DNA from: Candidatus Methanoperedens sp.
GTDB lineage: Archaea; Halobacteriota; Methanosarcinia; Methanosarcinales; Methanoperedenaceae
Assembly (NCBI GenBank): GCA_041494705.1
Contig: JBGQBI010000003.1
Coordinates: forward strand, 296,449-328,448
Length of the DNA: 32,000 nt
Direction: 5' to 3'
Shown in pieces: positions 2,493 through 32,000 of the stretch. How positions within the stretch are numbered: position 1 is the stretch's first letter; each line of letters opens with the position of its first letter. Under the pieces are notes generated by a model that did not search any database, was not told where the DNA came from, and saw only the letters and a list, made by a program, of their open reading frames with translations. Made by a program: the position numbers and the translations under genes.

Positions 2493-2495
2493 AAG

Positions 2496-5506: not shown

Positions 5507-6138
5507 AAGCTGAGAATATTATCGGCTTAGCGATTCTGGTGGTATTCGGACTTATTGTGGGCATACTATTCTCTGTTTATTCGCATGATAAGCAACTCAA
5601 TATTAAATCTGGTAAAACGCCAGGATACCCCAATAACACGCAAATCAATGGCGACAAACAGGTCGAGGGTAACACCCAGGTTTCGAACTTTACAGAGCTG
5701 GTTTCAAATGGAAAAAACATTTGCGAAGGATGCCATCTTTCGGGAAAGAAAATCTATCCCCAGGCATACCAGGTAAAACAGCACGTCGAAGGGGGCGCAT
5801 ATTGCCTCGAATGCCATACGATTGACCATAAAGTGCATCCCATGAGCCCGAAAGATAAAAACGTGACCTGTGAAAGCTGTCATGGGGCAGCATCCCCACA
5901 GGTGCCAACTTTTCGCAACGGTACAATATCATGCGCAAATTGCCATGATTACCCTGACCCGCTAAAGCCAAGCAATGGTAATCTTATTGTGATACACCGC
6001 GAGAGAAATGTGGATTGTATAAAATGCCATCTGGATTCAACTGCCTCTTGTCTTAAGTGCCATAATGAAATTAAAAGCGATGATAAATGGACAAAAAGGC
6101 TTAATCATTTCAATACGATTGTGAAGACAGCCCAATGA
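5503..6138 (+). CDS. Membrane-anchored hexaheme c-type cytochrome
   Basis: Six CxxCH motifs are present (CEGCH, CLECH, CESCH, CANCH, CIKCH, CLKCH). There is an N-terminal TM anchor (IIGLAILVVFGLIVGILFSVY). The start overlaps the upstream stop (ATGA at 5503-5506). Confidence 0.85.
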   Translation: MKAENIIGLAILVVFGLIVGILFSVYSHDKQLNIKSGKTPGYPNNTQINGDKQVEGNTQVSNFTELVSNGKNICEGCHLSGKKIYPQAYQVKQHVEGGAYCLECHTIDHKVHPMSPKDKNVTCESCHGAASPQVPTFRNGTISCANCHDYPDPLKPSNGNLIVIHRERNVDCIKCHLDSTASCLKCHNEIKSDDKWTKRLNHFNTIVKTAQ

Positions 6139-12144: not shown

Positions 12145-12804
12145 TTATAAGCTGCATCTTCGAACAACCCCAAAGCCACGGGAAACAGATTTGCCAATAC
12201 CAAGATATTCAGGTATCATGAAGTTTATCTGAAATTCGCCCTTAAAACCAATGAGAGGAATGCCTTTTGAATAAACTTTTATGGGTGATACTTTTGTTCT
12301 TACTTTAATTTGGTTAAGAACGACGTATCCGAGAGACTTGGAAATTGAGAGAAGGTTTCCTGCAAGGATTTGATGTAAAAGTTTCACTTTGTTCTTTGGA
12401 TCGAATTTAATATAGGAATCATAATTTATCTCATTCAAAGCTATCCAGGGAACAATAAACATATACTGCATAAAGCTATCAGAACAACCAAATTCCTGGC
12501 TTTTTTCAATTATCTGACGTTCTTCAATTTTGTAAGTCATCTTACCAAGGATAATATCTTCGATATCCCAGGAAATTTCTTTTAAAATCTCAGCCCCTTC
12601 ATCAATTCCAAGTATTACCGGCGTACCTTCAATTATCTTGTATTGCACTTTCGGATATTGGTAAGAGTTCTTACCATTTTCTGCATGCTGGTGCAGAATA
12701 GGATAGTCTTTGAACCTGTTTCCGATGAAGCCCCGCAGTTTCTCAGGGCTTTCAGTTACAGGGTCTTTGGTTTTCAGTATTAGGGTTAGGGTCTGGATGT
12801 CCAT
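12145..12804 (-). CDS. cas6: Cas6 endoribonuclease, paralogue A (attached to the type III-like module)
   Basis: It has a RAMP G-rich loop (LGIGKSVSRGFGVV) and the N-terminal LRGF...LHQH...YPKVQYK pattern. It is paralogous to the ORF at 23154-23846. Confidence 0.85.
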   Translation of the reverse strand: MDIQTLTLILKTKDPVTESPEKLRGFIGNRFKDYPILHQHAENGKNSYQYPKVQYKIIEGTPVILGIDEGAEILKEISWDIEDIILGKMTYKIEERQIIEKSQEFGCSDSFMQYMFIVPWIALNEINYDSYIKFDPKNKVKLLHQILAGNLLSISKSLGYVVLNQIKVRTKVSPIKVYSKGIPLIGFKGEFQINFMIPEYLGIGKSVSRGFGVVRRCSL

Positions 12805-12868: not shown

Positions 12869-13666
12869 TCATATTTGTTTTATTTTTATATCTACCTTTC
12901 CAAATCCCTTTGACTTGTAACCACCAATGGTTTTTATGCTTGCAAAGCGGTCAATAATAAACTCCTTGATGATCGGATCTATTGACCGTGGATGTCCTGC
13001 AAGCCATGCATCTCCTCCAGTATAATCTTTAAGATTTCTCGCTTTTCCAAGTTCTCTATCTCTAACAGTGTCTTTAATTATAACTGTCAAGGTACCCATG
13101 AATTTAGCACCGTCAGGCACCAACTGGTATGGTCTATTTGTCCCCTGCTTTACGGTCTGGATTGCCCTATCAATATTTGCCGAATATAGTTCATTAACCG
13201 TTGTTTTGGCATACAAAAACGGCACTTTTACAAATCCCTCAAGTCCGTTTGCGCCAAGGAAATAGCAAACCGGACAAATTTCGTGCAATGCTTTGCATTT
13301 TCTATCGCAGGGATAGTGACAGCCATCTCCTTTGATATCCCCTCCGGTCGGCTGGAATAAGTTATAGAATCTATATAACCCATTCACCACAAGCTGATTT
13401 TCATCAGGAGAAAGCTTTGTTGAAGGTATGCAAGGCTGAAGATTTTTATCCGTCCATTTTTTTTCAGCCCTATTAAAATAGGTATCAATCAGGTATCTCT
13501 CAATCTCACAGCGGTAAGCGCCTTTGAGGGTAGAACCCGGAACAACCGCCTTATTGCCCACAAGGGCTATCGGGTTATCTATTCCCGATAAGGGACTTGC
13601 TATCCCCCCGATTCGAATAGGTTCTAAAGTTGTCAATTCAATTTCAAATTCTTTCTGTTCAATCAT
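12869..13666 (-). CDS. cas7: Cas7-group RAMP, Csm3/Cmr4-like (the only Cas7 of the type III-like module)
   Basis: Motifs present: GIDNPIAL (Asp30, at the position of the Csm3/Cmr4 catalytic Asp), VPGSTLKGAYR, CPVCYFLG, and the C-terminal G-rich loop GGYKSKGFGKV. A GGAGG Shine-Dalgarno lies 10-14 nt upstream, inside the end of the preceding gene. Confidence 0.8.
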   Translation of the reverse strand: MIEQKEFEIELTTLEPIRIGGIASPLSGIDNPIALVGNKAVVPGSTLKGAYRCEIERYLIDTYFNRAEKKWTDKNLQPCIPSTKLSPDENQLVVNGLYRFYNLFQPTGGDIKGDGCHYPCDRKCKALHEICPVCYFLGANGLEGFVKVPFLYAKTTVNELYSANIDRAIQTVKQGTNRPYQLVPDGAKFMGTLTVIIKDTVRDRELGKARNLKDYTGGDAWLAGHPRSIDPIIKEFIIDRFASIKTIGGYKSKGFGKVDIKIKQI

Positions 13667-13670
13667 TTTC

Positions 13671-14690
13671 TCAAACCTCCGTTATACTTATCAAACTTTT
13701 TATTATAAACCGTGCAGTTTTTCTGTCTATAGATGGATATTTTTCAATGATTCCAAGTACATGAAGAAGCGTTTCTGCCTGTTGCCTCGTATCCCTTCTG
13801 TTCTTTCTCTCCAACAAAAATGTCCTGGTCATGGTTAACCCCTCCCTTTCGAGAATATCCCCAACTGTATTCTGAAACTTATTTGATAAATACCCAATTT
13901 TTACATTTTTCTTTATTTCTTCAATGACCTTTGCCGCAATATCTTCCGTTTCTGTATTCATTGTTTTGTCACTCTTTGTTTTTAGTAAAAATCCTGGCGC
14001 TTCAACCATGCTGCCTTCAAACAATGAAAGCACATACTTACCTTCTGTTTCGGATGTCGGTTCAAAAAGATATCCGAAATTTGCGTTTTTCACCTTTTTA
14101 ATTCCAAAAACATCATGCAAAAATCTGGTTGGCTTACCTTCTTCAAGTACATTTTTAATATCCTCTTTTCCAGCTTCAAAATCCGCATCATTAAGCTTAA
14201 AAAGTGGCAATCTGGTATTCAATTCACCCTCTCTGGAATCGGCACATGGATCAGTTCCCTTAAAATTCAATTTGCACTCCCCAAAACCTTTGGATTTCAA
14301 TCCACCCATCCAGAAACTTATCTCTCCTTTCTGGGACCATATCTCTTTCACATCTTCATTTTCTTTAAGATACACCTCGCCTTCCACATTGTAAAGATAT
14401 TCGGTATATATAGGAATAATACTTGTTTCAATTGACCTGTTTCGTGGAGAATAAGTGAGTGTCTTAATGTGATTCTCCCTGAACTCAGTCTCATCCTTAA
14501 AAAGAAAATGTCCACATGCATGGATTTGCTTTGACTTACCGGCATTTTTACTGTTTCCAAATTTCGCCTGAAGCGCACCTGTAATCTGGCTATAAGGAAT
14601 TGTTGTAATAACAGGGCGATACTGTCCCTTTTTAAACCTTTCTCCCAGGATGAGCAGATCAGAACTAAAACCAAACTTAAGGATGTTCAT
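13671..14690 (-). CDS. cas5: Cas5-group RAMP (Csm4/Cmr3-like N-terminal about 145 aa) with an unassigned C-terminal extension of about 190 aa
   Basis: The N-terminus has IPYSQITGALQAKFG and a G-rich loop, GGLKSKGFGECKL, at aa 129-141. The gene sits immediately after cas10, as cmr3 and csm4 do. The rest of the protein has no motif I can name; the last 90 aa or so are helical-looking and basic. Confidence 0.6.
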   Translation of the reverse strand: MNILKFGFSSDLLILGERFKKGQYRPVITTIPYSQITGALQAKFGNSKNAGKSKQIHACGHFLFKDETEFRENHIKTLTYSPRNRSIETSIIPIYTEYLYNVEGEVYLKENEDVKEIWSQKGEISFWMGGLKSKGFGECKLNFKGTDPCADSREGELNTRLPLFKLNDADFEAGKEDIKNVLEEGKPTRFLHDVFGIKKVKNANFGYLFEPTSETEGKYVLSLFEGSMVEAPGFLLKTKSDKTMNTETEDIAAKVIEEIKKNVKIGYLSNKFQNTVGDILEREGLTMTRTFLLERKNRRDTRQQAETLLHVLGIIEKYPSIDRKTARFIIKSLISITEV

Positions 14691-16708
14691 TCTTCATCCC
14701 CCATGATTTTTGCATATGTCAAAATTGTTTTAAAATCAATCTTTTTATCCTGCGCTCTGATTGGCTCAAAAGCATTGTAAACTCTATAATCTCCTCTATC
14801 ATAAACAAGAACCTTTGCCAATTTCTCTGAGGTCTCCGATATCTTGGCAAGCTTATGAAGCTGCTTGGAGGCAGGTATTTTGAAATCTTTTATTAAGACT
14901 TTGAGCTGGTTTAAAGTGAGGTGCATCCCACCCCTTCCAATCAAAATAACATTCACATCATTTTTTGGGTTCTCAAGGATTTTCCAGTGCCTAAAAAAGG
15001 CAAATTTTACATTGGATACTGAAATTGAGAGGGTAACTGGAGATTTTTGTTCCTTTAGCTCGGGGAAGCACTCCATAAATATGTTACTATATATTTCCAG
15101 GATATCTTTTATCTGGCTTATTTTTTCGAGTTTGATACAAAGAAAATCATTAAGGATAGGCTGGAAGTTCTCGGTTTTAAAATATTCTTCTAAATTTTTG
15201 TTGAAATTTTTGAGGAATAAATCATAATCTTTCTGGAATTCAGCAAGAACGGAAAAGCGTAGTTCAATTTTTTCAGAGATTGCACCTTTAAGGGTATTTT
15301 GGATATATTTGTCAAGTAGTGTTTGTAATGTTTCTGCCAGAGATTCAATATCCAGATTAATTTTGATCCAAGCAATTTTGGAATTAGGTTCTTCTTTATA
15401 CCATTGTTCAATTTTAGGAGCAGGTGGCTCTTTTCTAAAATCTCTAATAGAATAGCAACTTTCACAGAGGTGTTCCGTTATTCCGCTTTCTTCATCGTTC
15501 CAATCTTTTTCTGCTGGATGCATTTGACAGATTTCACAAAGCTTATTGATTGTGATTGATAGATTACCATAATAATTGCTTATAGGAAAACGGCTCTCAA
15601 ACTCCAAACGGTCTTTATCTAACTCTTTTAATTTGTTTGTTTTTAAGTTGATATCCGGTATTTTTTCAAGGTTTACCCGTTGTTTTTTGATGCTATTTTC
15701 AAAACGTTGAGATTCTTGTTCTTTAATTATTTTCGGTGTAAGATTTGCATATTCCAGGATCGTATTTGCTCCTTCGATATTAACAATGAAACCTCTTTCT
15801 ATAAAGGGTTTAACAAGTTGTGTAATTGATTCATCTGGAGGGAGTAACGCCAAGAATTGAGTAGAAGTATTAAGGATAATATTATCATTTTGTGAAAATT
15901 TAGATATTTCATTATTTAAAATTTGAAAAATATGTAAATCCTTAACTCTAACAGGATAATGTGGAAATTTAATCTGAACCCTTATGATATTTAAATTCCA
16001 CTTTTTTCTGGCGTCATTTGGACTGTTCGCAGTTTTACCTCCAAAGGAGAGAGTACCTTTAGAGACTTCTTTGGTATTTGCTTCGAAGAATCTAAACAGC
16101 TTTCCAACAAGGTTTGAATGAGTAAAAAGACTGGTAATATTCTTAGGTGGTTCAAAATCTTCTGGTCTCTCCAGCATATTTTTATTAAAATTCTGGAAAT
16201 ATTGCTCTTTATCTTGAACAACATTTGTAAAAGCAACCAATGATTTAAAATCATTCTCAGAAGAAAATAGTTTAATTTCTTCGTTGTAAGGCTTCCACAA
16301 CTTTAAGAGAGTCCTGTTTTCAAATTTAATATCAATTTTTCCAATCTCTTTATTTGTCAAAGTTCTTGAAATAGATGATGCCATATAATCAGCTAAACAT
16401 TGCAAAAAAACTGGATACTCTTTCTTCTTTTCTGCATATTCTGAGATCAAATCCTTTGTTGATTTATCTGGAGGATCATGGTGATATCTAATATTTTTGT
16501 ATGTAAGGGTTTCAGTAAAATTTACTCCAAATAACCTCAGATAGTGTAATTCTTCACCTGTTTCCTTATTTATGCATAAAAAATTGTGGTTCCAATCTAT
16601 TTTTTCAATAGGAATACCAAGTTTTTGCGAAATAAATTGCCTAATCCAATAACTATCCACAAGCTTCCCAATATCATGAAGTTCTGGAATAATTTTATCC
16701 TCAGACAT
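14687..16708 (-). CDS. cas10: Cas10-like large subunit: N-terminal HD nuclease motifs intact, Zn ribbon present, cyclase GGDD motif absent
   Basis: HD-domain motifs are LHDIGK (H11 D12), RYHHD (H76 H77) and LADYMASSISR (D107). The Zn ribbon is CEIC...CESC (C391, C394, C415, C418). Palm2-like strands are IAWIKINLDIESL and TLSISVSNVKF. The expected GGDD position reads PILNDFLCI (aa 517-525), and no GGD string occurs anywhere in the protein. Confidence 0.7.
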   Translation of the reverse strand: MSEDKIIPELHDIGKLVDSYWIRQFISQKLGIPIEKIDWNHNFLCINKETGEELHYLRLFGVNFTETLTYKNIRYHHDPPDKSTKDLISEYAEKKKEYPVFLQCLADYMASSISRTLTNKEIGKIDIKFENRTLLKLWKPYNEEIKLFSSENDFKSLVAFTNVVQDKEQYFQNFNKNMLERPEDFEPPKNITSLFTHSNLVGKLFRFFEANTKEVSKGTLSFGGKTANSPNDARKKWNLNIIRVQIKFPHYPVRVKDLHIFQILNNEISKFSQNDNIILNTSTQFLALLPPDESITQLVKPFIERGFIVNIEGANTILEYANLTPKIIKEQESQRFENSIKKQRVNLEKIPDINLKTNKLKELDKDRLEFESRFPISNYYGNLSITINKLCEICQMHPAEKDWNDEESGITEHLCESCYSIRDFRKEPPAPKIEQWYKEEPNSKIAWIKINLDIESLAETLQTLLDKYIQNTLKGAISEKIELRFSVLAEFQKDYDLFLKNFNKNLEEYFKTENFQPILNDFLCIKLEKISQIKDILEIYSNIFMECFPELKEQKSPVTLSISVSNVKFAFFRHWKILENPKNDVNVILIGRGGMHLTLNQLKVLIKDFKIPASKQLHKLAKISETSEKLAKVLVYDRGDYRVYNAFEPIRAQDKKIDFKTILTYAKIMGDEE

Positions 16709-16872: not shown

Positions 16873-19800
16873 GTTTCAATCCTTGTTTTAGTGGATGTGC
16901 CTCTTGAATTAAAAATCTATTCATGGATGGTGAAGAAGGGTTAATGTTTCAATCCTTGTTTTAGTGGATGTGCCTCTTGAATGCTGAATGGAAACGGCTG
17001 GGGTATCGCAAAAGCGGGAGTAGAGTTTCAATCCTTGTTTTAGTGGATGTGCCTCTTGAATGCAACAGCTTATAGCAGAATATGACAATAAACATAAGTT
17101 TCAATCCTTGTTTTAGTGGATGTGCCTCTTGAATATAACTGTATGTCCTCGATGTCATTCGTGGGCGAGGAGTTTCAATCCTTGTTTTAGTGGATGTGCC
17201 TCTTGAATATTATCAAGAGTTCCTGAAAACGCAAAATATCTGGAAGTTTCAATCCTTGTTTTAGTGGATGTGCCTCTTGAATGTCAGGGAACGGGAAGAA
17301 CGAAAACGGGAAGTTCTGGTTTCAATCCTTGTTTTAGTGGATGTGCCTCTTGAATGAGAAAGAGATTGATGATGATATTTTCGCTATTGGTTTCAATCCT
17401 TGTTTTAGTGGATGTGCCTCTTGAATTCTTGATTGCCCGGATGGATCTATTAATTGAACAGAAGTTTCAATCCTTGTTTTAGTGGATGTGCCTCTTGAAT
17501 TGCAAAAATCTGGTTTGAATTATTCGGCATTACTACGGTTTCAATCCTTGTTTTAGTGGATGTGCCTCTTGAATGAAGAGTTTTGTACAATGCAGCAAGG
17601 GCGTAATGAAGTTTCAATCCTTGTTTTAGTGGATGTGCCTCTTGAATCTTTCAGTTCATCTGTTTTTTCAACTGCTTTGATGTTAGTTTCAATCCTTGTT
17701 TTAGTGGATGTGCCTCTTGAATCCCTCTTCACGGAAGGAAAGGCAGGAGAACTACAGTTTCAATCCTTGTTTTAGTGGATGTGCCTCTTGAATAGTTGAA
17801 AAACCCGTGCCCGCTTGCGAGAATGTCAGTTTCAATCCTTGTTTTAGTGGATGTGCCTCTTGAATATGACAGCTCCAACAATTCCGGATATCTTTGTATG
17901 TTTCAATCCTTGTTTTAGTGGATGTGCCTCTTGAATAATTATCGAAAAAACCTTATACGCCGACGAAACAGGTTTCAATCCTTGTTTTAGTGGATGTGCC
18001 TCTTGAATTATGCTCTGGTGATATCATGGTCTCGAGAGCATATGGTTTCAATCCTTGTTTTAGTGGATGTGCCTCTTGAATGTCTTTCTGTATTCCATCA
18101 AGTCCACGATCCTGAGTTTCAATCCTTGTTTTAGTGGATGTGCCTCTTGAATCTGATCCGTTTTTTTTATTCCCTGGAAGAACACCAGGGTTTCAATCCT
18201 TGTTTTAGTGGATGTGCCTCTTGAATTTTCTATGGTGTGTGCGGTCAGGCCCCTGACCTGACAAGTTTCAATCCTTGTTTTAGTGGATGTGCCTCTTGAA
18301 TCGGGTATGCGGTTTCATAATCACGCCTGAACCTTAGTTTCAATCCTTGTTTTAGTGGATGTGCCTCTTGAATGCCTCGAATCCGCGCAAGGCGTCGGAT
18401 ATCGTGGGTTTCAATCCTTGTTTTAGTGGATGTGCCTCTTGAATTCTTTTTCAGCAACAGGAGGAACACATGCCACAGAGTTTCAATCCTTGTTTTAGTG
18501 GATGTGCCTCTTGAATCCGCCCATATAGCGCAAAACAACCCGCCCATCTGGGTTTCAATCCTTGTTTTAGTGGATGTGCCTCTTGAATTCAAGCGTCTGC
18601 CGCTCACGGACTATGAGAAGGCAGTTTCAATCCTTGTTTTAGTGGATGTGCCTCTTGAATTATATTGCTTTTTTGGTGCGACCACAAGAGATATAGTTTC
18701 AATCCTTGTTTTAGTGGATGTGCCTCTTGAATAATATTTTAGAAAAGCATGTCGGCAGGCATATCAAGTTTCAATCCTTGTTTTAGTGGATGTGCCTCTT
18801 GAATACAATCAAGAAGTCATGTACATTCTCAGTCTACTAGGTTTCAATCCTTGTTTTAGTGGATGTGCCTCTTGAATGAAAAGCAGGAGGAGTGGAAGCC
18901 TATATATATATAAGTTTCAATCCTTGTTTTAGTGGATGTGCCTCTTGAATCCGAGCGCAGCGGAAATTATCTCATTTGAAATAATAGTTTCAATCCTTGT
19001 TTTAGTGGATGTGCCTCTTGAATAATCAGGTGCAGGAGCGCCGTAATCGAATCCTTCATGTTTCAATCCTTGTTTTAGTGGATGTGCCTCTTGAATTACA
19101 CCTTTTTCCCCTTTTGAATTGGTACATTTTTGTTTCAATCCTTGTTTTAGTGGATGTGCCTCTTGAATAGGCTCGATGATAAGAACTCTCCATGCGAAAG
19201 CTGGTTTCAATCCTAGTTTTCGTGGATGTGCCTCTTGAATATCCAAAGTCCGAACATAACTTTCCAAGCTTACAGTTTAAATCCTTGTTTTAGTGGATGT
19301 GCCTCTTGAATATAGCGGGTATATTTATATAGTGTCTAACCAATGTTGTTTCAATCCTTGTTTTAGTGGATGTGCCTCTTGAATGTCCGAAGCGGATCAA
19401 GCGCGTGGACTGTGGCTTCAGTTTCAATCCTTGTTTTAGTGGATGTGCCTCTTGAATTTTCTCAATGGAAGTGCGTACAAGAACAATGTGACGTTTCAAT
19501 CCTTGTTTTAGTGGATGTGCCTCTTGAATCCTTGAGGGTGAGTAGCGAGGCTACCGCATATTATAGTTTCAATCCTTGTTTTAGTGGATGTGCCTCTTGA
19601 ATTCAGGTACATCCCGCCGAAGCTGCACCTGTTCCGCGGTTTCAATCCTTGTTTTAGTGGATGTGCCTCTTGAATCTCCGGCTGCCGGGCAAAGCGGCCA
19701 TTGTTCAAAGTTTCAATCCTTGTTTTAGTGGATGTGCCTCTTGAATCTGGTTCATGAAGGGATACCCGATTTCAAGGAGCTTAGTTTCAATCCTTGTTTT

Positions 19801-20977
19801 AGTGGATGTGCCTCTTGAATGTACATTTATGAATTGGAAGTAATCGTTAAACTTGTTTCAATCCTTGTTTTAGTGGATGTGCCTCTTGAATACGGCGGAG
19901 ATAGCGTCTTCGGAGTACAGTACGAGGTTTCAATCCTTGTTTTAGTGGATGTGCCTCTTGAATCCCATATGATTTTTTCAGACAGTTTCAGCGCAGGTGT
20001 TTCAATCCTTGTTTTAGTGGATGTGCCTCTTGAATTCCTCAATCGAGGAAGTCAGCCGGGCAGAAATGAGTTTCAATCCTTGTTTTAGTGGATGTGCCTC
20101 TTGAATGAAGCGGATCAAGCGCGTGGACTGCGGTTTCGTGAAGTTTCAATCCTTGTTTTAGTGGATGTGCCTCTTGAATGCCCGGCAGCGCGGGAGCCGC
20201 AAGCGCGAACAACAGTTTCAATCCTTGTTTTAGTGGATGTGCCTCTTGAATTTTGTCGTGAAGAAATGGCGGAAGCAATGTGGAGGTTTCAATCCTTGTT
20301 TTAGTGGATGTGCCTCTTGAATTACGCTCATAAATCCTCAGGAGGGATTGATTCAAAGTTTCAATCCTTGTTTTAGTGGATGTGCCTCTTGAATGAAGAG
20401 GCGACCGCGCGGTTGAAGGAGTTCATGAAGTTTCAATCCTTGTTTTAGTGGATGTGCCTCTTGAATACAAGGAATATCAATGTTGATTCCACAGAGAAAA
20501 AAAGTTTCAATCCTTGTTTTAGTGGATGTGCCTCTTGAATCAGGACGGGGTTTGTAGTGTGCAGGCCCTCGAATACCAGGGTTTCAATCCTTGTTTTAGT
20601 GGATGTGCCTCTTGAATGCGCTGAACGCATACAAGGGAAACGGCTTTCTGGAGTTTCAATCCTTGTTTTAGTGGATGTGCCTCTTGAATTTTTGGTACCA
20701 TTCCTTATCCTAGGAACGAGAAAGTTTCAATCCTTGTTTTAGTGGATGTGCCTCTTGAATCATCTGCGATATGGTTGTTTGGTAATCAGACAAATGGTTT
20801 CAATCCTTGTTTTAGTGGATGTGCCTCTTGAATTGTGATCTCGCTTCCGGAACTCGCCTCATCACCGAGTTTCAATCCTTGTTTTAGTGGATGTGCCTCT
20901 TGAATTCCAGGTTCCTATAGGATCGGTGTAGAGAATATTAGTTTCAATCCTTGTTTTAGTGGATGTGCCTCTTGAAT
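16873..20977 (-). CRISPR. CRISPR array with 57 repeats of 37 bp and 56 spacers of 34-42 bp
   Basis: The + strand repeat is GTTTCAATCCTTGTTTTAGTGGATGTGCCTCTTGAAT. Its reverse complement ends in ATTGAAAC, a typical 8-nt 5' tag, which gives - strand transcription with the leader at the high-coordinate end next to cas4. All 57 repeats were located by hand, and the spacer lengths sum correctly to the span. The variant repeats are at 19204-19240 (2 substitutions) and 19275-19311 (1 substitution). Confidence 0.97.
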
Positions 20978-21085
20978 AGCACGAATTTTCGGCTATTTGG
21001 GTCAAAATACGTGTTATTATGGCTTATTTCTTGTGCTCAAAATTCTTGGTGCAAAATTATAGAATGGTTTATAAAGACAAGAAAA
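20978..21085 (-). promoter_or_regulatory. Putative CRISPR leader with palindromic TATA-like box TTTATAAA (21068-21075)
   Basis: This is a 108-bp non-coding segment between the cas4 stop and the first repeat. The orientation is inferred from the repeat polarity and the cas gene direction. Confidence 0.5.
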
Positions 21086-22958
<1,873 letters not shown>

Positions 22959-23106
22959 GTTTATTCCCCCTGAACGCTTTGCGATTTTTGCACCGCAGAG
23001 AACGCAAAGGACGCAAAGATTATGCTTTATATTGTCATGTTGTTTTCGTTTCTTAATATATTAACCGCAGATAAACGCAAAACTTTATGAAAGTTTTATC
23101 AAACGA

Positions 23107-23127
23107 GGGGTATGCTTCGCATACCCC
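23107..23127 (-). terminator. GC-rich hairpin GGGGTATGC-TTC-GCATACCCC downstream of cas6-B
   Basis: A 9-bp perfect stem with a 3-nt loop lies about 27 nt after the cas6-B stop. A second inverted repeat, AAACCGAA/TTCGGTTT (23138-23155), spans the stop codon. Confidence 0.4.
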
Positions 23128-23153
23128 AACACTGCGTAAACCGAAGTTTCGGT

Positions 23154-23846
23154 TTATGAACGCAGATGCCTGATTGCATAAGGCTCCTCTTTTGCCAGAC
23201 CTTTAACAGCCCCGAAGCCTCTTGAAACTGATTTCCCGATGCCAAGATAATCAGGTATGAGGAAGTTGGTACAGAATCCTCCGATGAAGGTCATCACGTT
23301 TACGTCTTTTAACCTGCTTTTCCTGATATTTACATCAACATCGCATTTTATCTTTTCGGGTACCTGATAATCTAAAGATTTTGACACGGAAAGAAGGTTC
23401 CCAATGAGCGTTTTTCTAAGGAATTCATTTCTATCCTCATGACTCTTAAGACCATAGTACTTCATGTAATTCTCCTGGTTGAGCGCAAGCCATGGCGTGG
23501 CGAACTCGTAGGAATGTATCTTTTCCGAAATCCCAAACTCCTGGTTCCTGACAGAGATGCCCTTCTCTACGATCTCATAAACCTCCTCGCCAAGTTTTAT
23601 TTCATCGTATTTATCATAAACCAGTTTTAAAACGTCGGCGCCGTCATTGATTCCGATGACCATGGGCGCGCCGTCTATCATCTTGTACTGCACGAGGGGA
23701 TAGCGATAGATGAGCCTGTCGGCGCTGTGCTGGTGGAGGAGGGAGTATTCGTTGAATTGGGTGGCGAAGAAGCCGCGAAGCTCTGCTGAGGTGCCCTGGA
23801 TGGGGCGGGTGGAAGCGAGGGTGAGGGTGAAGGTTTTGAGGTTCAT
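23154..23846 (-). CDS. cas6: Cas6 endoribonuclease, paralogue B (type I-B side)
   Basis: It has the G-rich loop LGIGKSVSRGFGAV and the LRGFF...LHQH...YPLVQYK pattern. The ATG at 23846 (MNLKTFTLTLAS) is preferred over the GTG at 23858 because the upstream relic copy starts at the homologous ATG. Confidence 0.85.
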   Translation of the reverse strand: MNLKTFTLTLASTRPIQGTSAELRGFFATQFNEYSLLHQHSADRLIYRYPLVQYKMIDGAPMVIGINDGADVLKLVYDKYDEIKLGEEVYEIVEKGISVRNQEFGISEKIHSYEFATPWLALNQENYMKYYGLKSHEDRNEFLRKTLIGNLLSVSKSLDYQVPEKIKCDVDVNIRKSRLKDVNVMTFIGGFCTNFLIPDYLGIGKSVSRGFGAVKGLAKEEPYAIRHLRS

Positions 23847-23935
23847 ATTTTTATGCACTATGTTTTATCACTTTGGTCTGCTACTGCATTGCGGCGCTGG
23901 GGTTGCGACCCCAGACCCCGGTGAGGCGCCGCCGA
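23847..23935. repeat. Copy A of an imperfect direct repeat of about 90 bp flanking the MNT/HEPN cassette
   Basis: Collinear blocks ATGCACTAT, TTATCA, CTTTGGT, TGCAT and GGCGCCGCCG are shared with 24963-25049. Copy A additionally carries the hairpin CTGGGGT-TGCG-ACCCCAG (23897-23914). Confidence 0.6.
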
Positions 23936-24043
23936 TGGCGGGGTTTTCTGTAAGCAGATTGTTACATGTTAACCAGTTTTGAAATTCTAGCGCTGCTATT
24001 TTTGATGCTTATTAATTTGTGAACATTTTCACTTATGAGGTCT

Positions 24044-24475
24044 TCAATCTTTAATTTCTATGTACTTGTCAATGGTCTCTATGAATTCATAAAAATCCTT
24101 CAATTCTATATTTAGATAAGAATATGCCCTTGAATCATCTATATGTCCATATTGATGCACAAGCAAATTTCGAAATCCAACAAGTTCTTCAAGCCTGGTG
24201 GAAAGTGACCCTGTTATCACTCCATTTTCAGCAAGTTTCCTGATACTATCTTTACTATCGGTCGGTATTCCAAATCCTTTTTCAGATATGATCAAATTAC
24301 AGATGTCAAGTAAATTTTCACTTGCCAGTTGGAAAGCGCGTTCACACGCTCTTTTCCTCAGACCGCTGTTCAGGTATTCCTCTTTTTCTTCTGGAAGGTA
24401 TTCCTCAAGTTCTCTCAGGTATTTCTCCAGTTCATCCATCTTTTCTAATATTCTATCTTTATCCAAGAATATCAT
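24044..24475 (-). CDS. HEPN (DUF86) toxin of a HEPN/MNT toxin-antitoxin pair
   Basis: The R-x4-H motif is present in FRNLLVHQYGHID. The protein is 143 aa and overlaps the upstream MNT gene by 4 nt. Confidence 0.8.
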   Translation of the reverse strand: MIFLDKDRILEKMDELEKYLRELEEYLPEEKEEYLNSGLRKRACERAFQLASENLLDICNLIISEKGFGIPTDSKDSIRKLAENGVITGSLSTRLEELVGFRNLLVHQYGHIDDSRAYSYLNIELKDFYEFIETIDKYIEIKD

Positions 24476-24921
24476 CCCAATCTGGCTCTAACACGTTCCA
24501 TAACATGCTTATGATAGTCCTTAGTGAGCCTTTTATATCGTTCATATTCTATATCATTTATCTTTGAAAGTGTTAATATGTAATACATGTCCTGCGTGTA
24601 AAGCACCCTGCCTTCGAGAAATACCCTTTTGCGTATATAAACAGGCAGTTCATCAATGAATGAAATATCGATATTCTCAGGAACTGAATTGTTAATGGAT
24701 ATCCTCTCTTTCAGGGGAATTTCAATATCATGTTTTGGTATGATACATATATCTATGTCGCTCTTTTCTTTTTCAGTTCCTCTGGCTTTTGAACCAAAAA
24801 GGATGATGGAATGAACAAGCCTGGACCTCTTGAGTTTTGAGATTGCCTCGTTTATGTCTTCGTTTGATATATTTTGGTCGTTCCTTTTTGTCACAGGGAC
24901 AATTTGATTTTTCATTATCAT
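24472..24921 (-). CDS. Minimal nucleotidyltransferase (MNT) antitoxin
   Basis: The G-S-x9-11-D-x-D motif is present (ILFGSKARGTEKEKSDIDICII). The protein is 149 aa. Confidence 0.8.
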   Translation of the reverse strand: MIMKNQIVPVTKRNDQNISNEDINEAISKLKRSRLVHSIILFGSKARGTEKEKSDIDICIIPKHDIEIPLKERISINNSVPENIDISFIDELPVYIRKRVFLEGRVLYTQDMYYILTLSKINDIEYERYKRLTKDYHKHVMERVRARLG

Positions 24922-24962
24922 TCTCTCTGCTGTATAATTATTTAAAGACTGGCTCTTCTACA

Positions 24963-25049
24963 TCTATTTTTTTCATGCACTATAGTTATCATTTTTGTTA
25001 ACTTTGGTGTATGTAATTATTGCATGTCTCAGGAAATCCGGCGCCGCCG
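24963..25049. repeat. Copy B of the imperfect direct repeat flanking the MNT/HEPN cassette
   Basis: It carries the same ordered blocks as copy A: ATGCACTAT 24975-24983, GTTATCA 24985-24991, CTTTGGT 25002-25008, TGCAT 25021-25025, GGCGCCGCCG 25040-25049. Confidence 0.6.
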
Positions 25050-25150
25050 CAAAGTCCCTGCGCGCCGTCTGTGATGCCGCGCCGCGCATGGGTGTGGAGG
25101 ATGGGGGGGGCGGGGATGCAGGCGGAGGCGAGGGTGAGGTTGAGGTTCAT
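24998..25150 (-). pseudogene. 5' relic of a cas6 gene (50-codon ORF, only the start is Cas6-like)
   Basis: The - strand ORF begins MNLNLTLASA, compared with MNLKTFTLTLAS in cas6-B. At nucleotide level 25095-25150 aligns with 23795-23846, including the identical GCGAGGGTGAGG and GAGGTTCAT strings. The ATG lies 10 nt after the cas3 stop. The ORF contains a G8 homopolymer (25103-25110), and the Cas6-like sequence is lost after about 25-40 codons. Confidence 0.6.
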
Positions 25151-25160
25151 GGTCCTAGTT

Positions 25161-27896
25161 TTAACAAATTAAATTTCCGCAGCCAGCTTTTTCTCTTTTA
25201 AATCCTGTTTTGCGATCGTAATAAGATTCCAATTCGTAATTATTGATAAAATTAAGTTCTCCGTCTTTAAAATCAGCGGCGTAATTCTTTGGGATACTGA
25301 TCACATAATCATAAAATTGCTTTTTTATTTTTAAAAATTCTTTCCTTCGTTCAAGAGGATCTTTAATATCTCGGATTTCACAATATTTCTGTTTTACTTT
25401 TTTGGCATTATCATCATATACGTTTAACGTACCGTTCTCAACTTTCACAACGAATTCATTAGCTTTACTCCCATTGATAGTTAGTGTTACTTTGGTTTTT
25501 TCAAAGTTAAGTGTTAGCGAAACATAATTATTTTCACTATACAATTTTATGGTTTTATTATCTTCAATTTTTTCTATTTTTGCTGTGTTTACACAGTCAA
25601 TACCAAAATCCCGATTTAAGAGTTCTATGAGTTTTCCGTTGTGGTTTCCCGGAATTTCATCCCAGCTAAACAAAAACTCATCATCTAACTCAACAAAAAT
25701 GTCTATTTTATAAAAGTTGTCATCATCTATTAATTTGAAATCTGATATTGGTTTTCTCTTATTTCTATCAGGAGTTTTATCATAAAAATATAAATCGTAA
25801 AGTGATTCAATAAGTTTTACTTCTGTTCCAGACTTTTCTTTTGCAGATTCAAAATACTTATTTATCAGCTCTAAAAAATCTATTTCGTAGAACTGAGAAG
25901 TGGTATTATCTTCATTATTAAATAAGTTATTAACTAAATGCAATAAAACAGGATCGTATATCTTTGTATATGAGGTTCCATTTTTCAAATTCACTAAATG
26001 CATTTCTGCTTTATCAAATCGTTTATTTCTATTGCATCTTCCTGCGATCTGTATTATAGAATCTAACGGACCTCTATCACGATATACACAATCACAGTCA
26101 ATATCTACTCCCGCTTCAATTAGTTGTGTTGAAACAATTATGACCTTTTGATTGTTTTTTATCGCTTTTCTTGCGTATTCTATTCTTTGCCTTCTTTCTC
26201 TTGGAGTAATATTTGTTGATAAATAGCATTTTTTGAAAGGCAAACCTGATTTTTGGATTTTATCAGTTATTAAATTATAAAACTCTAATGATGAACCAAT
26301 TGTATTAAAAACAAACAGATATGAGTTTTTAGACCAATCATTCAACTCGTTACAGAATTCTATTACTTTTTTCTCGTTGGAATCTATCTTCAAAATTACA
26401 CGGTTTAAATCTTCCGTCTTAAAGTAACTTTCATAATTATCTACAAGTTCTTTGTACTCTCCCTCCTCAAAAATCAATGGCTTAGTAGCGGTCATTAAAA
26501 TAATTGTACAATTAAAATATTCAGTCATCCCAATTAAAACTCTTCTCACTAAATTCCAGTATTCTATAGGAATATTCTGTGCTTCATCTAAAATAATTAT
26601 TGAATTTACAATGTTGTGAAACTTTTTTAAGCTCCTATTCTTGTATCCTATCAAGCTATAAAATAATTGAATAAAAGTCGTAACGATAACTTCAGATTCC
26701 CAAGATTCAATTAAGGCGAGGCTTTCATCCAAATCTTCTTCCTTATCCATATTTTGCGTTTTATAAAAGATTTCTGAAAGATGATGATGCTTTAAAAGAT
26801 ATGGACTCTCATTATTTTTGAAATCGCTAATTTGACTTAAAACTTTATCGAACACATCATAGTTTTGGTCTATAATACTTGTAAAAGGTAGTGAGTAGAT
26901 AATCCTTGGTTCAAATTTTAAATTGAGATCATTTTTTAAGATTTTCCTTAGCTTCAAAGCAGCAGCGAAAGAAGTTAAGGTTTTACCTGTTCCCGTCGGC
27001 GCTGTCAGCGTAAAGATTTTCTGGCTTGCATTTTTAGGATCAGATATATTCGTTATTACTGAGGCTTGAATTTGAGCTCTAATGATGTTAATATTGCTTT
27101 TGTTTTCTTCTTTGATTTCAGGTTTGTTTAAATGTATTTCAACGAGATTATCTAAGAGTTCTTTTCTTTCTATTTTTCTGACACTGCCGGCGTGTTTTTT
27201 ATCTGAATCTATCAAAATAGAATAAAAAAGCTGAACAAGAAAATAATATATTAGGTTTTTATTATCCGTCTCCTCAAAGGAGTGAAAGATTTTAACTAAT
27301 TCTTTAATTTGTGGTTTAATATCATCTGAATATTTTATTTCACCTTTGTATTTCTCGATATTAGAAAATATTTTTTTAGCGGATAGATTGATTTTCTTAA
27401 TTAATAACTCGTATTCATTAATTATTGAATCATAATTAATCCAAATATCCATTAATTGTCTGGATATATTTTTAAATCCGCCATCAAATAATTTTTCTGA
27501 ATCTATATCATTATTAATATCGTCCAAATCCAGATGGTGGCGCTTAACAACAAAATAAGCAATCAATGGAAGAAATTTATAAGGTATTTCATTTTCAAGT
27601 TTTTCTGTTTTTATATATTCATTCACCGCTTCAAATACAAACAATGCAGAAATTAGCCCATGATTTGTTACAGGATCGTTTTTATCACTTAGTCCTTTCA
27701 GCTTTTCCTGGAAAAATGTTGTATATTTTCCAAAATCATGCGAAATACCTATGATATAAGATACATCTGCAAAAGCATTTATATTAAATCCATCAAAATT
27801 TTTTAATTCAATTATTTCTTTACTTCTATCTCCCACAGACTGCAAGTGATCTTTTAAAAGAATCTTTTTGGGGTCTAAGTGAGAATAAAACTCCAT
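25161..27896 (-). CDS. cas3: Cas3 HD nuclease-helicase fusion
   Basis: The N-terminal HD motifs are LKDHLQSVG and ISHDFGKYT. The helicase motifs are TAPTGTGKT (Walker A), IILDEAQN (DEAD-like) and STQLIEAGVDID. The protein is 911 aa. Confidence 0.92.
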   Translation of the reverse strand: MEFYSHLDPKKILLKDHLQSVGDRSKEIIELKNFDGFNINAFADVSYIIGISHDFGKYTTFFQEKLKGLSDKNDPVTNHGLISALFVFEAVNEYIKTEKLENEIPYKFLPLIAYFVVKRHHLDLDDINNDIDSEKLFDGGFKNISRQLMDIWINYDSIINEYELLIKKINLSAKKIFSNIEKYKGEIKYSDDIKPQIKELVKIFHSFEETDNKNLIYYFLVQLFYSILIDSDKKHAGSVRKIERKELLDNLVEIHLNKPEIKEENKSNINIIRAQIQASVITNISDPKNASQKIFTLTAPTGTGKTLTSFAAALKLRKILKNDLNLKFEPRIIYSLPFTSIIDQNYDVFDKVLSQISDFKNNESPYLLKHHHLSEIFYKTQNMDKEEDLDESLALIESWESEVIVTTFIQLFYSLIGYKNRSLKKFHNIVNSIIILDEAQNIPIEYWNLVRRVLIGMTEYFNCTIILMTATKPLIFEEGEYKELVDNYESYFKTEDLNRVILKIDSNEKKVIEFCNELNDWSKNSYLFVFNTIGSSLEFYNLITDKIQKSGLPFKKCYLSTNITPRERRQRIEYARKAIKNNQKVIIVSTQLIEAGVDIDCDCVYRDRGPLDSIIQIAGRCNRNKRFDKAEMHLVNLKNGTSYTKIYDPVLLHLVNNLFNNEDNTTSQFYEIDFLELINKYFESAKEKSGTEVKLIESLYDLYFYDKTPDRNKRKPISDFKLIDDDNFYKIDIFVELDDEFLFSWDEIPGNHNGKLIELLNRDFGIDCVNTAKIEKIEDNKTIKLYSENNYVSLTLNFEKTKVTLTINGSKANEFVVKVENGTLNVYDDNAKKVKQKYCEIRDIKDPLERRKEFLKIKKQFYDYVISIPKNYAADFKDGELNFINNYELESYYDRKTGFKREKAGCGNLIC

Positions 27897-27902
27897 ATTT
27901 CC

Positions 27903-28730
27903 CTACATGAACATTATGTTTTCAATCAGATTGCGCTCTCTTTCAGAATACTTTACGGAAAAACAAGATGCGTCTTCTTTCAATTTTACTTTCATAACGT
28001 CACCTTTAACTTCCATTACATATTCTTCAGGCGGTAAGGGAGTTCTATCACTTAAAAAACCTGTAGGCATTTTTTCTGTATTATATTGTAGATTATTATC
28101 ATCAAAATCAAGTTCCACTTCCCTTAACTTACAGACACTATTCAACTCAACCTTTCGATTTTGATTTCTTGATACAGTACCCTCATCAATGTAATCTATG
28201 GATGCTAAAAATTCAGTTAAGCCCATATAAGGAGGATATACAAATCTCTGCCCCTCTAATCGTTTTTTCAATTCATCATATTTATCTTTAAGTTCCACAT
28301 GATAAAAAAAATATATCCTGTATGTTAACTCTTCACAACTATTTTCTGGAAGCAGAATCTCCAAGGGGATTTGAGTAGGTGCCCCCCTTGTTCCGGTTAC
28401 TAATGCCTCAAAAGAGTATTTACTATGTTTATCTGTTTTTGTTTTAATATAATTAACACTCTGCATCAATTTCCTAACTCTTTTTAGCATTGAAACTGCA
28501 ACGAAACATTTATCACTGCCAAATTTTTCATAGTATGTTTCTTCTTTATTTTTTGTGTGTCTTTCACTCGGCAGTCCCAAAAGCCCTGCAATTAATCCAA
28601 CAACAACCGTTCTTGGTGGAAATAAATAACTTAAAGAGGATGAGTTAGTATAATATTTCCTAAAGTGAGCCATTGGTCCCCTAATGTCAAAAATTAATAC
28701 TTTCTCTGGATTGAAGTCATTAATGGACAT
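27903..28730 (-). CDS. cas5: Cas5 (type I-B)
   Basis: The N-terminus, FDIRGPMAHFRKYYTNSSSLSYLFPPRTVVVGLIAGLLG, is canonical for type I Cas5. The gene lies between cas7 and cas3. Confidence 0.9.
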   Translation of the reverse strand: MSINDFNPEKVLIFDIRGPMAHFRKYYTNSSSLSYLFPPRTVVVGLIAGLLGLPSERHTKNKEETYYEKFGSDKCFVAVSMLKRVRKLMQSVNYIKTKTDKHSKYSFEALVTGTRGAPTQIPLEILLPENSCEELTYRIYFFYHVELKDKYDELKKRLEGQRFVYPPYMGLTEFLASIDYIDEGTVSRNQNRKVELNSVCKLREVELDFDDNNLQYNTEKMPTGFLSDRTPLPPEEYVMEVKGDVMKVKLKEDASCFSVKYSERERNLIENIMFM

Positions 28731-28732
28731 TT

Positions 28733-29806
28733 TCAGCTTTTTGTTGATTTTTTGGTTTCCAGATTCTGGCTCGGCAGTTGTACGATTTGTATCTCTGCAT
28801 TTTTTAGCTTTAACTTCCCATTCTCGTTATTCCAGCCATGAACTCTTAAATCAGCGTTTTTCCAGAAATGGATTTTAGAGATTTTATCCTTACATTCATC
28901 TAACTTTTCACACAGTTTGCTTAGGTCTAATTTATATTCATCTGGTGAGCGTAATTTTGCGGTCTCATCAAAAAGCATTTCTTTACCTTGCTCGTCTATT
29001 ATCTTTACATACCTTCTTAAATCACCAAAGAAAAAATCTGAAGAATTATATTGTATTCGGATATACAATAAGGGGTGTTGCTCAAACTTACTCCTTGAGG
29101 TCGCTTCCAACGGTATCGCATGGATCATTGCATCATCAAATAACTCGATATCCTTGTTTGTAAGGTTCGTAAAATATGCTCTTTTTGCACTGATTATACC
29201 ATGAAACGCAATTAAAGAGTAATCAACACGATAATCTTTGCCCATTGCGCCAGAACCTTTTTCTGATTCTTCCTCTTCGGTTGTTTTTCCAGTTTGAAAA
29301 TGAGATGTTATACCATTTGATTCCATAGGTCCTGTTACCTTGTTTAAAGAATGACCCCAATTAAACTGGATAGGTCCTGTAAATGTAACATTTCCTTTTC
29401 TGTCTTTAAACATTACATCTGGAATAATAGCACCAAACATTCGTACATCAATAGCTTTATCCAAGAACCCATTAATTTGGTTGTCATCAATTTCTATTTT
29501 ATCCTTGTCTTTTACATTCAATATCATAGCCAAACTTTTTTTAGCGTTTACAACAGCCCCTCCACTTTTAGAGACAAATATTATTGTCGTTTCATCTTTT
29601 TTATAATCTCCCAAATAATCTCTGATATATCTTTTCAGCCGTACATCTGATACCAGGTTTATGTTCCTATGATAATCCATTCTCGGCTTATTTTCATCAT
29701 CGGGGTCCCCATTAGGATTGCACATCCGAGCATCATAAATAAACAATATTTCACTGTTATTTTTGGGTTTAACGCCACCGCTCTCTATTTCAGTTTTATC
29801 CGTCAT
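28733..29806 (-). CDS. cas7: Cas7 (type I-B, Csh2/Cst2-like)
   Basis: It carries the signature NPNGDPDDENKPRMD. The protein is 357 aa and lies between cas8b and cas5. Confidence 0.9.
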   Translation of the reverse strand: MTDKTEIESGGVKPKNNSEILFIYDARMCNPNGDPDDENKPRMDYHRNINLVSDVRLKRYIRDYLGDYKKDETTIIFVSKSGGAVVNAKKSLAMILNVKDKDKIEIDDNQINGFLDKAIDVRMFGAIIPDVMFKDRKGNVTFTGPIQFNWGHSLNKVTGPMESNGITSHFQTGKTTEEEESEKGSGAMGKDYRVDYSLIAFHGIISAKRAYFTNLTNKDIELFDDAMIHAIPLEATSRSKFEQHPLLYIRIQYNSSDFFFGDLRRYVKIIDEQGKEMLFDETAKLRSPDEYKLDLSKLCEKLDECKDKISKIHFWKNADLRVHGWNNENGKLKLKNAEIQIVQLPSQNLETKKSTKS

Positions 29807-29807
29807 T

Positions 29808-32000
<2,193 letters not shown>

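Follow-up and report, generated by a model that had tools for sequence, protein, structure and literature searches.

A subtype III-F CRISPR-Cas module in Candidatus Methanoperedens with a Cas10 predicted to retain its HD nuclease and to lack the cyclase site

A 32,000-nucleotide stretch of a Candidatus Methanoperedens contig (JBGQBI010000003.1), here called the window, carries a 673-residue open reading frame (ORF) that probably encodes the large subunit, Cas10f, of a CRISPR-Cas effector of subtype III-F, in which the cyclase has been lost, no cyclic oligoadenylate (cOA) is made and immunity relies on the HD nuclease alone. Judged from its profile matches, the locus is of subtype III-F, and loss of the cyclase is a known hallmark of this subtype and not the sign of a new kind of system. 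Indeed, a cyclase-dead, HD-positive Cas10 is described as a defining trait of III-F (Hoikka et al.). The initial annotation of this DNA had proposed a Cas10-like protein with a retained nuclease and a lost cyclase. This proposal is supported by the predicted fold, the conservation of the HD domain and the missing GGDD motif, but the annotation overlooked that cyclase loss was already a published III-F trait. The loss is in itself no discovery, and what distinguishes the locus are local variations: a Cas5-Cas11 fusion, a catalytic-type Cas7, a Cas6b of its own and a mosaic cas10 gene.

Fold and active sites of Cas10f

The ORF lies on the minus strand, which the initial annotation had left unnamed; the plus-strand translation of the same interval is full of stops. 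The PADLOC profile Cas10a/Cas10f matches the protein almost end to end (E 5e-96, amino acids (aa) 4-670), and Pfam and NCBIfam provided no model for it. An identical 673-aa gene call is present in the NCBI assembly GCA_041480985.1 (contig JBGPBB010000002.1) and in a Logan assembly. In public annotation, Cas10f and the Cas5-Cas11 protein encoded next to it are both entered as "hypothetical protein", and naming them correctly is of some practical value. A search of 5.8 billion proteins returned 67 relatives from archaea and bacteria, all of them unnamed or "hypothetical". When the family profile was run against 1.84 billion cluster representatives, 333 clusters matched at E <= 1e-3, 228 of which reached E <= 1e-30. 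No matches were obtained with tblastn against plasmids. The family is rare yet well populated.

An AlphaFold2 (AF2) model built from a 50-sequence alignment (mean predicted local distance difference test score (pLDDT) 89.5, predicted template modelling score (pTM) 0.88) comprises, from the N to the C terminus, an HD domain, Palm1, a zinc ribbon, a degenerate Palm2 and a short helical D4 domain. This order, the fold and the HD motifs are shared with Cas10 of the type III-A Csm complexes (PDB 6ifn, 9no4, 9g9a). When the model was compared with the PDB using Foldseek, all 50 of the 50 matches listed were Cas10/Csm1 or III-D Cas10 proteins, with alignments over the full length, the best being 9no4_A (E 4.8e-12, probability 1.0). 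TM-scores of about 0.5 are what one would expect when the domains of such a protein are mobile relative to one another. The predicted fold is that of Cas10, and the possibility, raised initially, that it might turn out to be of the Cas8 or Csf1 type was not upheld. A type IV-C/Csf or Cas8-type large subunit was rejected on two grounds, the Foldseek matches listed being all Cas10 and the Cas7 of the module matching the type IV profile far less well than the III-F one (see below). At the level of sequence, the Cas10f family profile matches PDB entries only in the HD region, with E-values of 3e-6 for Streptococcus thermophilus Csm1 (6ifn_A) and 3e-4 for III-D Cas10 (8bmw_K). Taken together, the full-length profile match, the HD-region match to Csm1 and the structural matches go far beyond chance. 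Compared with III-A Cas10, the window protein is about 100 aa shorter and its D4 is reduced, with helices at residues 614-670 of the model against 695-772 in a model of Csm1.

The nuclease site of Cas10f is complete. The motifs LHDIGK (H11, D12), RYHHD (H76, H77) and LADYMASSISR (D107) are found at the residues first reported and are conserved in the family. Conservation counts, here and below, refer to 185 full-length Cas10f members unless the 50-sequence alignment is named. H11 and D12 are kept in all 179 members aligned at this position, D107 in 184 of 185 and H76 in 158; in the 50-sequence alignment, H11, D12, K15, D107, S114, R115 and the four ribbon cysteines are invariant, and H76 is nearly so. 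As a canonical comparison set, we used an alignment of 22 GGDD-bearing Csm1 sequences, built from a cas10 on a Limosilactobacillus plasmid and from its homologues. Against this set, hhalign aligned the HD region with a probability of 95.7% (E 1e-8) and paired HD with HD, YHH with YHH, and LADxxASSxSR of Cas10f with IADNIASGxDRR of Csm1. These alignments show strong purifying selection on the nuclease site. The four-cysteine zinc ribbon noted initially (C391, C394, C415, C418) is likewise present and near-invariant, each cysteine being kept in 177-185 of the 185 members, and its place among the domains is that of C406/C409/C422/C425 in canonical Csm1.

In Palm2, as modelled, both the GGDD hairpin and the first aspartate of the DxD motif are missing. 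The corresponding strings in Cas10f are IAWIKINLD (N451, D453), PILNDFLCI (aa 517-525) and TLSISVSNVKF (aa 559-569), which we placed by comparing the order of secondary structure elements in the Cas10f model with that in an AF2 model of a GGDD-bearing Csm1. The elements correspond one to one: strand b1 (444-452 in Cas10f against 527-534 in Csm1, with N451 and D453 at the places of D533 and D535), two helices (454-472 and 485-510 against the Csm1 helices up to residue 580), b2 (515-519 against 585-590), the hairpin (N520-D521 against GGDD at 591-594, Cas10f being one residue shorter), b3 (522-527 against 594-600), the helix that follows (530-547 against 601-618) and b4 (558-566 against 625-632). 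From this match it follows that ILND would lie at the GGDD hairpin and N451/D453 at the DxD position. The initial assignment, which had ILND where GGDD is expected and N451 replacing the first aspartate of the DxD strand, is therefore right at the level of predicted topology, and the structural comparison with Csm1 bears out both the Cas10 fold and the element-by-element match of Palm2. In agreement with the initial statement that no GGD or GGDEF string occurs, a regular-expression search for GGD or [GASDEK]G[DE][DE] across the 673 residues gave no match. A sequence-profile alignment of Palm2 was discarded because hhalign assigned it a probability of 0.25% and the forced alignment contradicts the secondary structure of the model.

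The same pattern extends across the family. At the hairpin columns 518-521, Gly-Gly occurs in none of the 185 members; position 518 is I, P or V, position 519 is L or I, and position 520 is variable, while position 451 is mostly S, N or T. GGDD-like strings are found elsewhere in 12 members, and none of the 12 aligns to the hairpin. Three of the 185 members (P0260, P0269 and P0272) carry SGED, SGDD or AGED directly after b3, aligned with aa 528-531. A register that places GGDD at E528-S531 was considered and rejected: this segment begins the helix 530-547 (pLDDT >90), the counterpart of Csm1 helix 601-618. We read the three strings as helix N-caps because they sit at the N terminus of a confidently predicted helix, a call taken from the model of the window protein and not from structures of the three relatives.

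Palm1 aligns weakly with Csm1 in hhalign (E 0.0024), NITSLxTH being paired with DISLYDH and R254 with LRSRS, and its b-a-b-b-a-b order is the same in the two models. E183, H197, R254 and D257 are conserved as strongly as the HD residues. The initial remark that Palm1 is also degenerate proved uninformative: in canonical Cas10, GGDD is confined to Palm2, and Palm1 is not known to carry it in any Cas10.

Partner genes and related III-F loci

Cas10f is the first product of an operon of four intact, translationally coupled ORFs in the order cas10f, cas5f-cas11f, cas7f and cas6b. The second ORF is a fusion of a Cas5 part (about aa 1-243) and a Cas11 part (aa 244-339), which PADLOC matches to Cas5_IIIf (E 7e-41, aa 3-238) and Cas11f (E 2e-16, aa 253-336). 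At the domain junction lies an internal methionine, Met244 (window 13961), which follows a weak purine-rich "agagtga" and is kept in all four close fused loci. A single cas5f/cas11f ORF is also found in loci L001, L002 and L004, and possibly as an independent case in L010, whereas cas5 (about 200 aa) and cas11 (about 95 aa) are separate genes in L005-L007, L009, L012, L048 and L054. Some large-subunit genes of type I systems are known to yield Cas11 by internal initiation, and we hypothesize that free Cas11 might also arise here by initiation at Met244.

The operon has one Cas7 ORF and no second paralog, unlike III-A systems, which have Csm3 and Csm5. After Cas7_IIIf (E 4e-59), the next-best Cas7 model is Csm3 (1e-14); Cas7_IIIg scores 5e-12, typeIV_Cas7 3.5e-5 and the Cmr-type models of III-C 4e-3 or worse. 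Residue D30 of Cas7f aligns with the aspartate of GGIDNPV in Thermococcus onnurineus Csm3 and of ATDNPI in III-D Cas7, and its loop, GIDNP, is identical to that of the T. onnurineus protein. Besides the number of Cas7 genes, the window differs from III-A in the absence of GGDD, of the first DxD aspartate and of Csm6.

The module resembles III-F systems in its intact HD domain, the absence of a cyclase motif, its single Cas7 and single Cas5, the presence of Cas11f and the absence of a CARF or ancillary effector; it gives strong matches to all III-F-specific profiles, and its gene order is that of other III-F loci. A review table reproducing the 2020 classification (of Makarova et al.) names Thermotoga lettingae Tlet_0097-0100 as the III-F exemplar and lists the target as "DNA?", cleavage of DNA being the predicted activity (PMC8036902). 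The window module differs from the exemplar type in encoding Cas5 and Cas11 in one ORF, in its short, 87-position Cas11, and in having its own cas6b and adjoining an array. It also differs from the canonical III-F clade, in which Cas7 has a lysine at the place of the catalytic-type aspartate.

A scan of 185,579 species genomes yielded 55 related loci in archaea and bacteria, and the order cas10f-cas5-(cas11)-cas7 is kept in nearly all that are long enough to show it. In the clade of the window, Cas11f is short (PDLC01224, an 87-position profile) and Cas7 position 30 is D or E in 16 loci. In a second clade of 19 loci, including L015 and L003, this position is Lys within LTEKKAPVF, where a Glu precedes it by two residues, and Cas11f is about 200 aa long (PDLC01223, a 167-position profile; examples are L015 and L003). 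III-F scores in the second clade are higher (in L015, Cas10 2e-117, Cas5_IIIf 3e-57, Cas11f 8e-45 and Cas7_IIIf 6e-81). As both clades match the III-F models, the existing profiles cover both. The difference at Cas7f position 30 suggests that RNA cleavage may persist in one branch of III-F and be lost in the other.

It is common for III-F modules to lie inside I-B operons. Locus L015 (4937-17855) reads cas6b-cas8b-cas7b-cas5b-[PD-DExK-cas10f-cas5f-cas11f-cas7f]-cas3b-cas4-cas1-cas2, with a PD-(D/E)xK gene (PADLOC PDC-S02 / PD_DExK) directly ahead of cas10f. A description of this locus as a standalone III-F module plus Cas3 was rejected, since the upstream ORFs are cas6b, cas8b, cas7b and cas5b. 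In L026, the III-F module lies between cas7b and cas5b, and further examples of nesting in I-B operons are L003, L019 and L042.

The cas10f gene of the window has a mosaic structure, with a breakpoint near codon 483 (window 15256-15265). The stretch between about 15260 and cas6b (12143) shares 90.7% nucleotide identity with L002, a Ca. Methanoperedens contig, and 84.8% with L004; upstream of about 15260, blastn detects no similarity to either. At the protein level, identity to the protein P0011 is about 40% over aa 1-483 and 74-86% over aa 484-673; for P0001, the corresponding values are about 93% and about 80%. The breakpoint falls within a lower-confidence loop (aa 471-480, pLDDT 73) between two Palm2 helices. 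The jump in identity indicates that the HD-Palm1-zinc ribbon "head" is exchanged separately from the remainder, which moves together with cas5-11, cas7 and cas6. A tentative reading, which we hold to be rather doubtful, is that the clade of the window represents a distinct, undescribed III-F variant: Cas11 would be encoded inside the cas5 ORF and perhaps also made as a free protein from the conserved Met244, RNA cleavage by Cas7 would be kept, and the head (aa 1-483) would recombine apart from the complex-binding tail, possibly under anti-CRISPR pressure.

Proposed mechanism and alternative readings

The mechanism that we propose is modeled on type III-A biology. Cas6b would cut the precursor CRISPR RNA (pre-crRNA) to leave an 8-nucleotide (nt) AUUGAAAC tag at the 5' end of each crRNA, on which Cas5f-Cas11f, several copies of Cas7f and one Cas10f would assemble. 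The complex would pair with an invader transcript, target binding would activate the HD domain of Cas10f to cut nearby single-stranded DNA, and Asp30 of Cas7f would cleave the bound RNA in 6-nt steps, thereby ending the response. Because the GGDD hairpin and the first DxD aspartate are lost, no cOA should be made, and a CARF or SAVED effector is neither needed nor present; signaling would play no part, and the HD nuclease would be the sole basis of immunity. Consistently, models for CARF, SAVED and other cOA effectors (Pfam, NCBIfam, PADLOC) had no match among the window ORFs scanned, a set that omitted ORF 10-408 and the trp genes, and the initial observation that no CARF effector lies nearby holds for these ORFs. 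Among the III-F loci that the literature surveys, none is reported with an effector. Sharing the array could allow the module to back up the DNA-sensing I-B system by sensing RNA.

Cyclase-dead type III systems show type III immunity without second-messenger signaling, and the present locus is a compact and complete test case, with four genes, a native 57-repeat array and a I-B partner. It could address whether the HD nuclease alone is enough for defense, whether cleavage of target RNA by Cas7 persists, and how one array is shared between DNA-sensing and RNA-sensing effectors.

Several points weigh against this account. The literature searched contained no experimental or structural papers on III-F. 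The T. lettingae exemplar was absent from three homology searches and from the genome scan, in which only a relative from Thermosipho (Thermotogales; 37% identity) came up, and the link to Tlet_0097-0100 runs through profile names only. A Cas11 fused to a single-copy Cas5 is awkward for a multi-copy Cas11 filament unless the start at Met244 is used. The placement of the Palm2 motifs depends on secondary structure order, as sequence profiles fail to align this domain. Finally, position 453 is Asp in 62% and position 521 is Asp or Glu in 72% of family members, and a residual metal site at D453/D521 is formally conceivable.

The main alternative, in our view an unlikely one, is that the complex acts in a type I-like manner, as in I-D: it would open double-stranded DNA, the HD domain and the I-B Cas3 would degrade it, and transcription would not be needed. 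Like I-D with its Cas10d, the locus combines an HD domain on a Cas10-like large subunit, an inactive Palm and a Cas3-type helicase; here, however, Cas3 is part of a complete I-B set that has a Cas8b of its own. The Cas7, Cas5 and Cas11 of the module are type III-like, and PADLOC type I-D models gave no match. The nesting of III-F modules in I-B operons (L015, L026) and the type I or adaptation genes in at least 12 of the 18 loci with long flanks are in favor of a type I-like action, but the other 6 of the 18 have no detectable type I gene, and type III systems in general are often co-located with type I, which counts against reading such neighborhoods in this way. The single Cas7 gene, as in type I, and the lysine that replaces the RNA-cleaving aspartate in Cas7 of the canonical III-F clade also favor a type I-like action. 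Set against this, Cas7f of the window keeps the Csm3-type aspartate in an identical GIDNP loop, which argues for RNA targets, and Cas7f, Cas5f and Cas11f match type III and not type I models.

Less probable still is that the locus belongs to III-H, or to III-C or III-G, the other lineages of type III in which the Palm domain is inactivated. III-H is described as a distant relative of III-F that is cyclase-dead and HD-positive, that occurs in archaea including a Methanoperedens relative, and whose Cas10 has its C-terminal domain replaced by Cas11, with no separate small subunit, while its Cas7 is without the catalytic aspartate (Makarova et al. 2025, PMC12669027). The window shares with it the state of Cas10, a reduced gene set and a host among Methanoperedens-related archaea; moreover, models for III-H are missing from PADLOC 2.0 (2023), and a locus of this subtype could by default be matched to the III-F models. 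In the window, however, Cas11f is a distinct domain, encoded in an ORF downstream of cas10 and fused to Cas5, Cas10 keeps its C-terminal helical domain, and Cas7 keeps D30. For III-G and III-C, the corresponding models score far below Cas7_IIIf, as given above.

We give marginally less credence still to a Palm2 that is alive, in which D453, E455 and D521, together with E183, D184, H197, R254 and D257 of Palm1, would carry out a non-canonical nucleotide reaction or sense a ligand. Acidic residues at 453 and 521 in most members and the strong conservation of E183, H197, R254 and D257 would fit such a role. The two acidic positions nevertheless vary freely, the hairpin glycines are absent in 185 of 185 members, position 451 is mostly Ser, Asn or Thr, and the Palm1 motifs are common to canonical Csm1 and are thus general features of Cas10. 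Among the ORFs scanned, no sensor or effector gene lies nearby, and none is reported for the III-F loci covered by the literature surveys. A cyclase site rebuilt from other residues, which the initial annotation had named as a possible refutation, is not supported. That the module is a functionless, decaying remnant, as its lack of adaptation genes of its own and the public label "hypothetical protein" for Cas10f and Cas5-11 might suggest, is hardly credible given four intact, translationally coupled ORFs, catalytic residues strictly conserved across 185 members, identical gene calls in independent assemblies and a flanking array in which 55 of the 57 repeats are identical.

Shared array, type I-B system and remaining genes

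A single array has the III-F operon at one end and a complete I-B system at the other (Table 1). The variant repeats lie mid-array only (19204, 19275), and both end repeats are perfect. Read in transcript sense (minus strand), the repeat has ATTGAAAC at its end, which is the 8-nt tag usual for crRNAs; from this tag and the direction of the cas genes, the array is probably transcribed in the same direction as all cas genes, with its leader beside cas4. The I-B genes are matched by PADLOC Cas4b (2e-82), Cas2b (1e-41), Cas1b (1.5e-143), Cas3b (1e-196), Cas5b (6e-46), Cas7b (3e-63) and Cas8b (8e-112), and Cas6b was also matched. The only adaptation genes at the locus are those of the I-B system.

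Table 1. Features of the III-F module, the array and the I-B system (window positions)
Feature	Position	Strand	Details
cas10f ORF	14687..16708	minus	ATG start, 673 aa; PADLOC Cas10a/Cas10f, AF2 model, Foldseek
HD nuclease domain, aa 1-120	16349..16708	minus	H11, D12, K15, H76, H77, D107, S114, R115
Palm1 region, aa 181-320	15749..16168	minus	family-invariant NITSLxTH (N190, T192, H197); R254/D257
Four-Cys zinc ribbon	15449..15547	minus	C391, C394, C415, C418; near-invariant Cys
Degenerate Palm2 (predicted), aa 444-566	15011..15379	minus	N451/D453 at DxD position
ILND, aa 518-521	15146..15157	minus	predicted b2-b3 hairpin, place of GGDD in canonical Cas10
C-terminal helical domain, aa 614-673	14690..14869	minus	short counterpart of Cas10 D4
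cas5f-cas11f fusion	13671..14690	minus	339 aa; start overlaps cas10f stop (ATGA)
cas7f	12869..13666	minus	265 aa; sole Cas7 gene of the module; PADLOC Cas7_IIIf
Cas7f catalytic-type Asp30 (GIDNP)	codon 13577-13579	minus	from alignment
cas6b of the III-F module	12145..12804	minus	219 aa; Pfam Cas6b_N + Cas6b_C; PADLOC Cas6 3e-78
CRISPR array	16873..20977	minus	57 repeats of 37 nt, spacers 34-42 nt
Putative leader	20978..21085	minus	between cas4 stop and first repeat; inferred from sequence
Type I-B system	21086..32000	minus	cas4, cas2, cas1, cas6b, hepT/mntA, cas3, cas5b, cas7b, cas8b (runs off the window)

Two Cas6b paralogs that are 43% identical (12145-12804 and 23154-23858, both minus strand) flank the one near-uniform array, so that the two effector modules seem each to retain a separate Cas6 for a common repeat. 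Within the I-B operon, between cas6b and cas3 (24044-24921, minus strand), two overlapping ORFs encode a HepT-like HEPN RNase (143 aa) and an MntA-like nucleotidyltransferase (149 aa), as identified by Pfam matches to HepT and nucleotidyltransferase. They form a toxin-antitoxin-type pair and not a CARF effector.

The remainder of the window carries housekeeping genes, including PmbA/TldD, an inositol-phosphate synthase, trp genes (recognized by eye) and a multihaem cytochrome. A co-directional cluster on the plus strand (1500-6138), which lies upstream of the trp genes, encodes an AAA_22 ATPase, a polytopic membrane protein that matches no family, a 612-aa BatD/DUF11-like surface protein and a multihaem c-type cytochrome.

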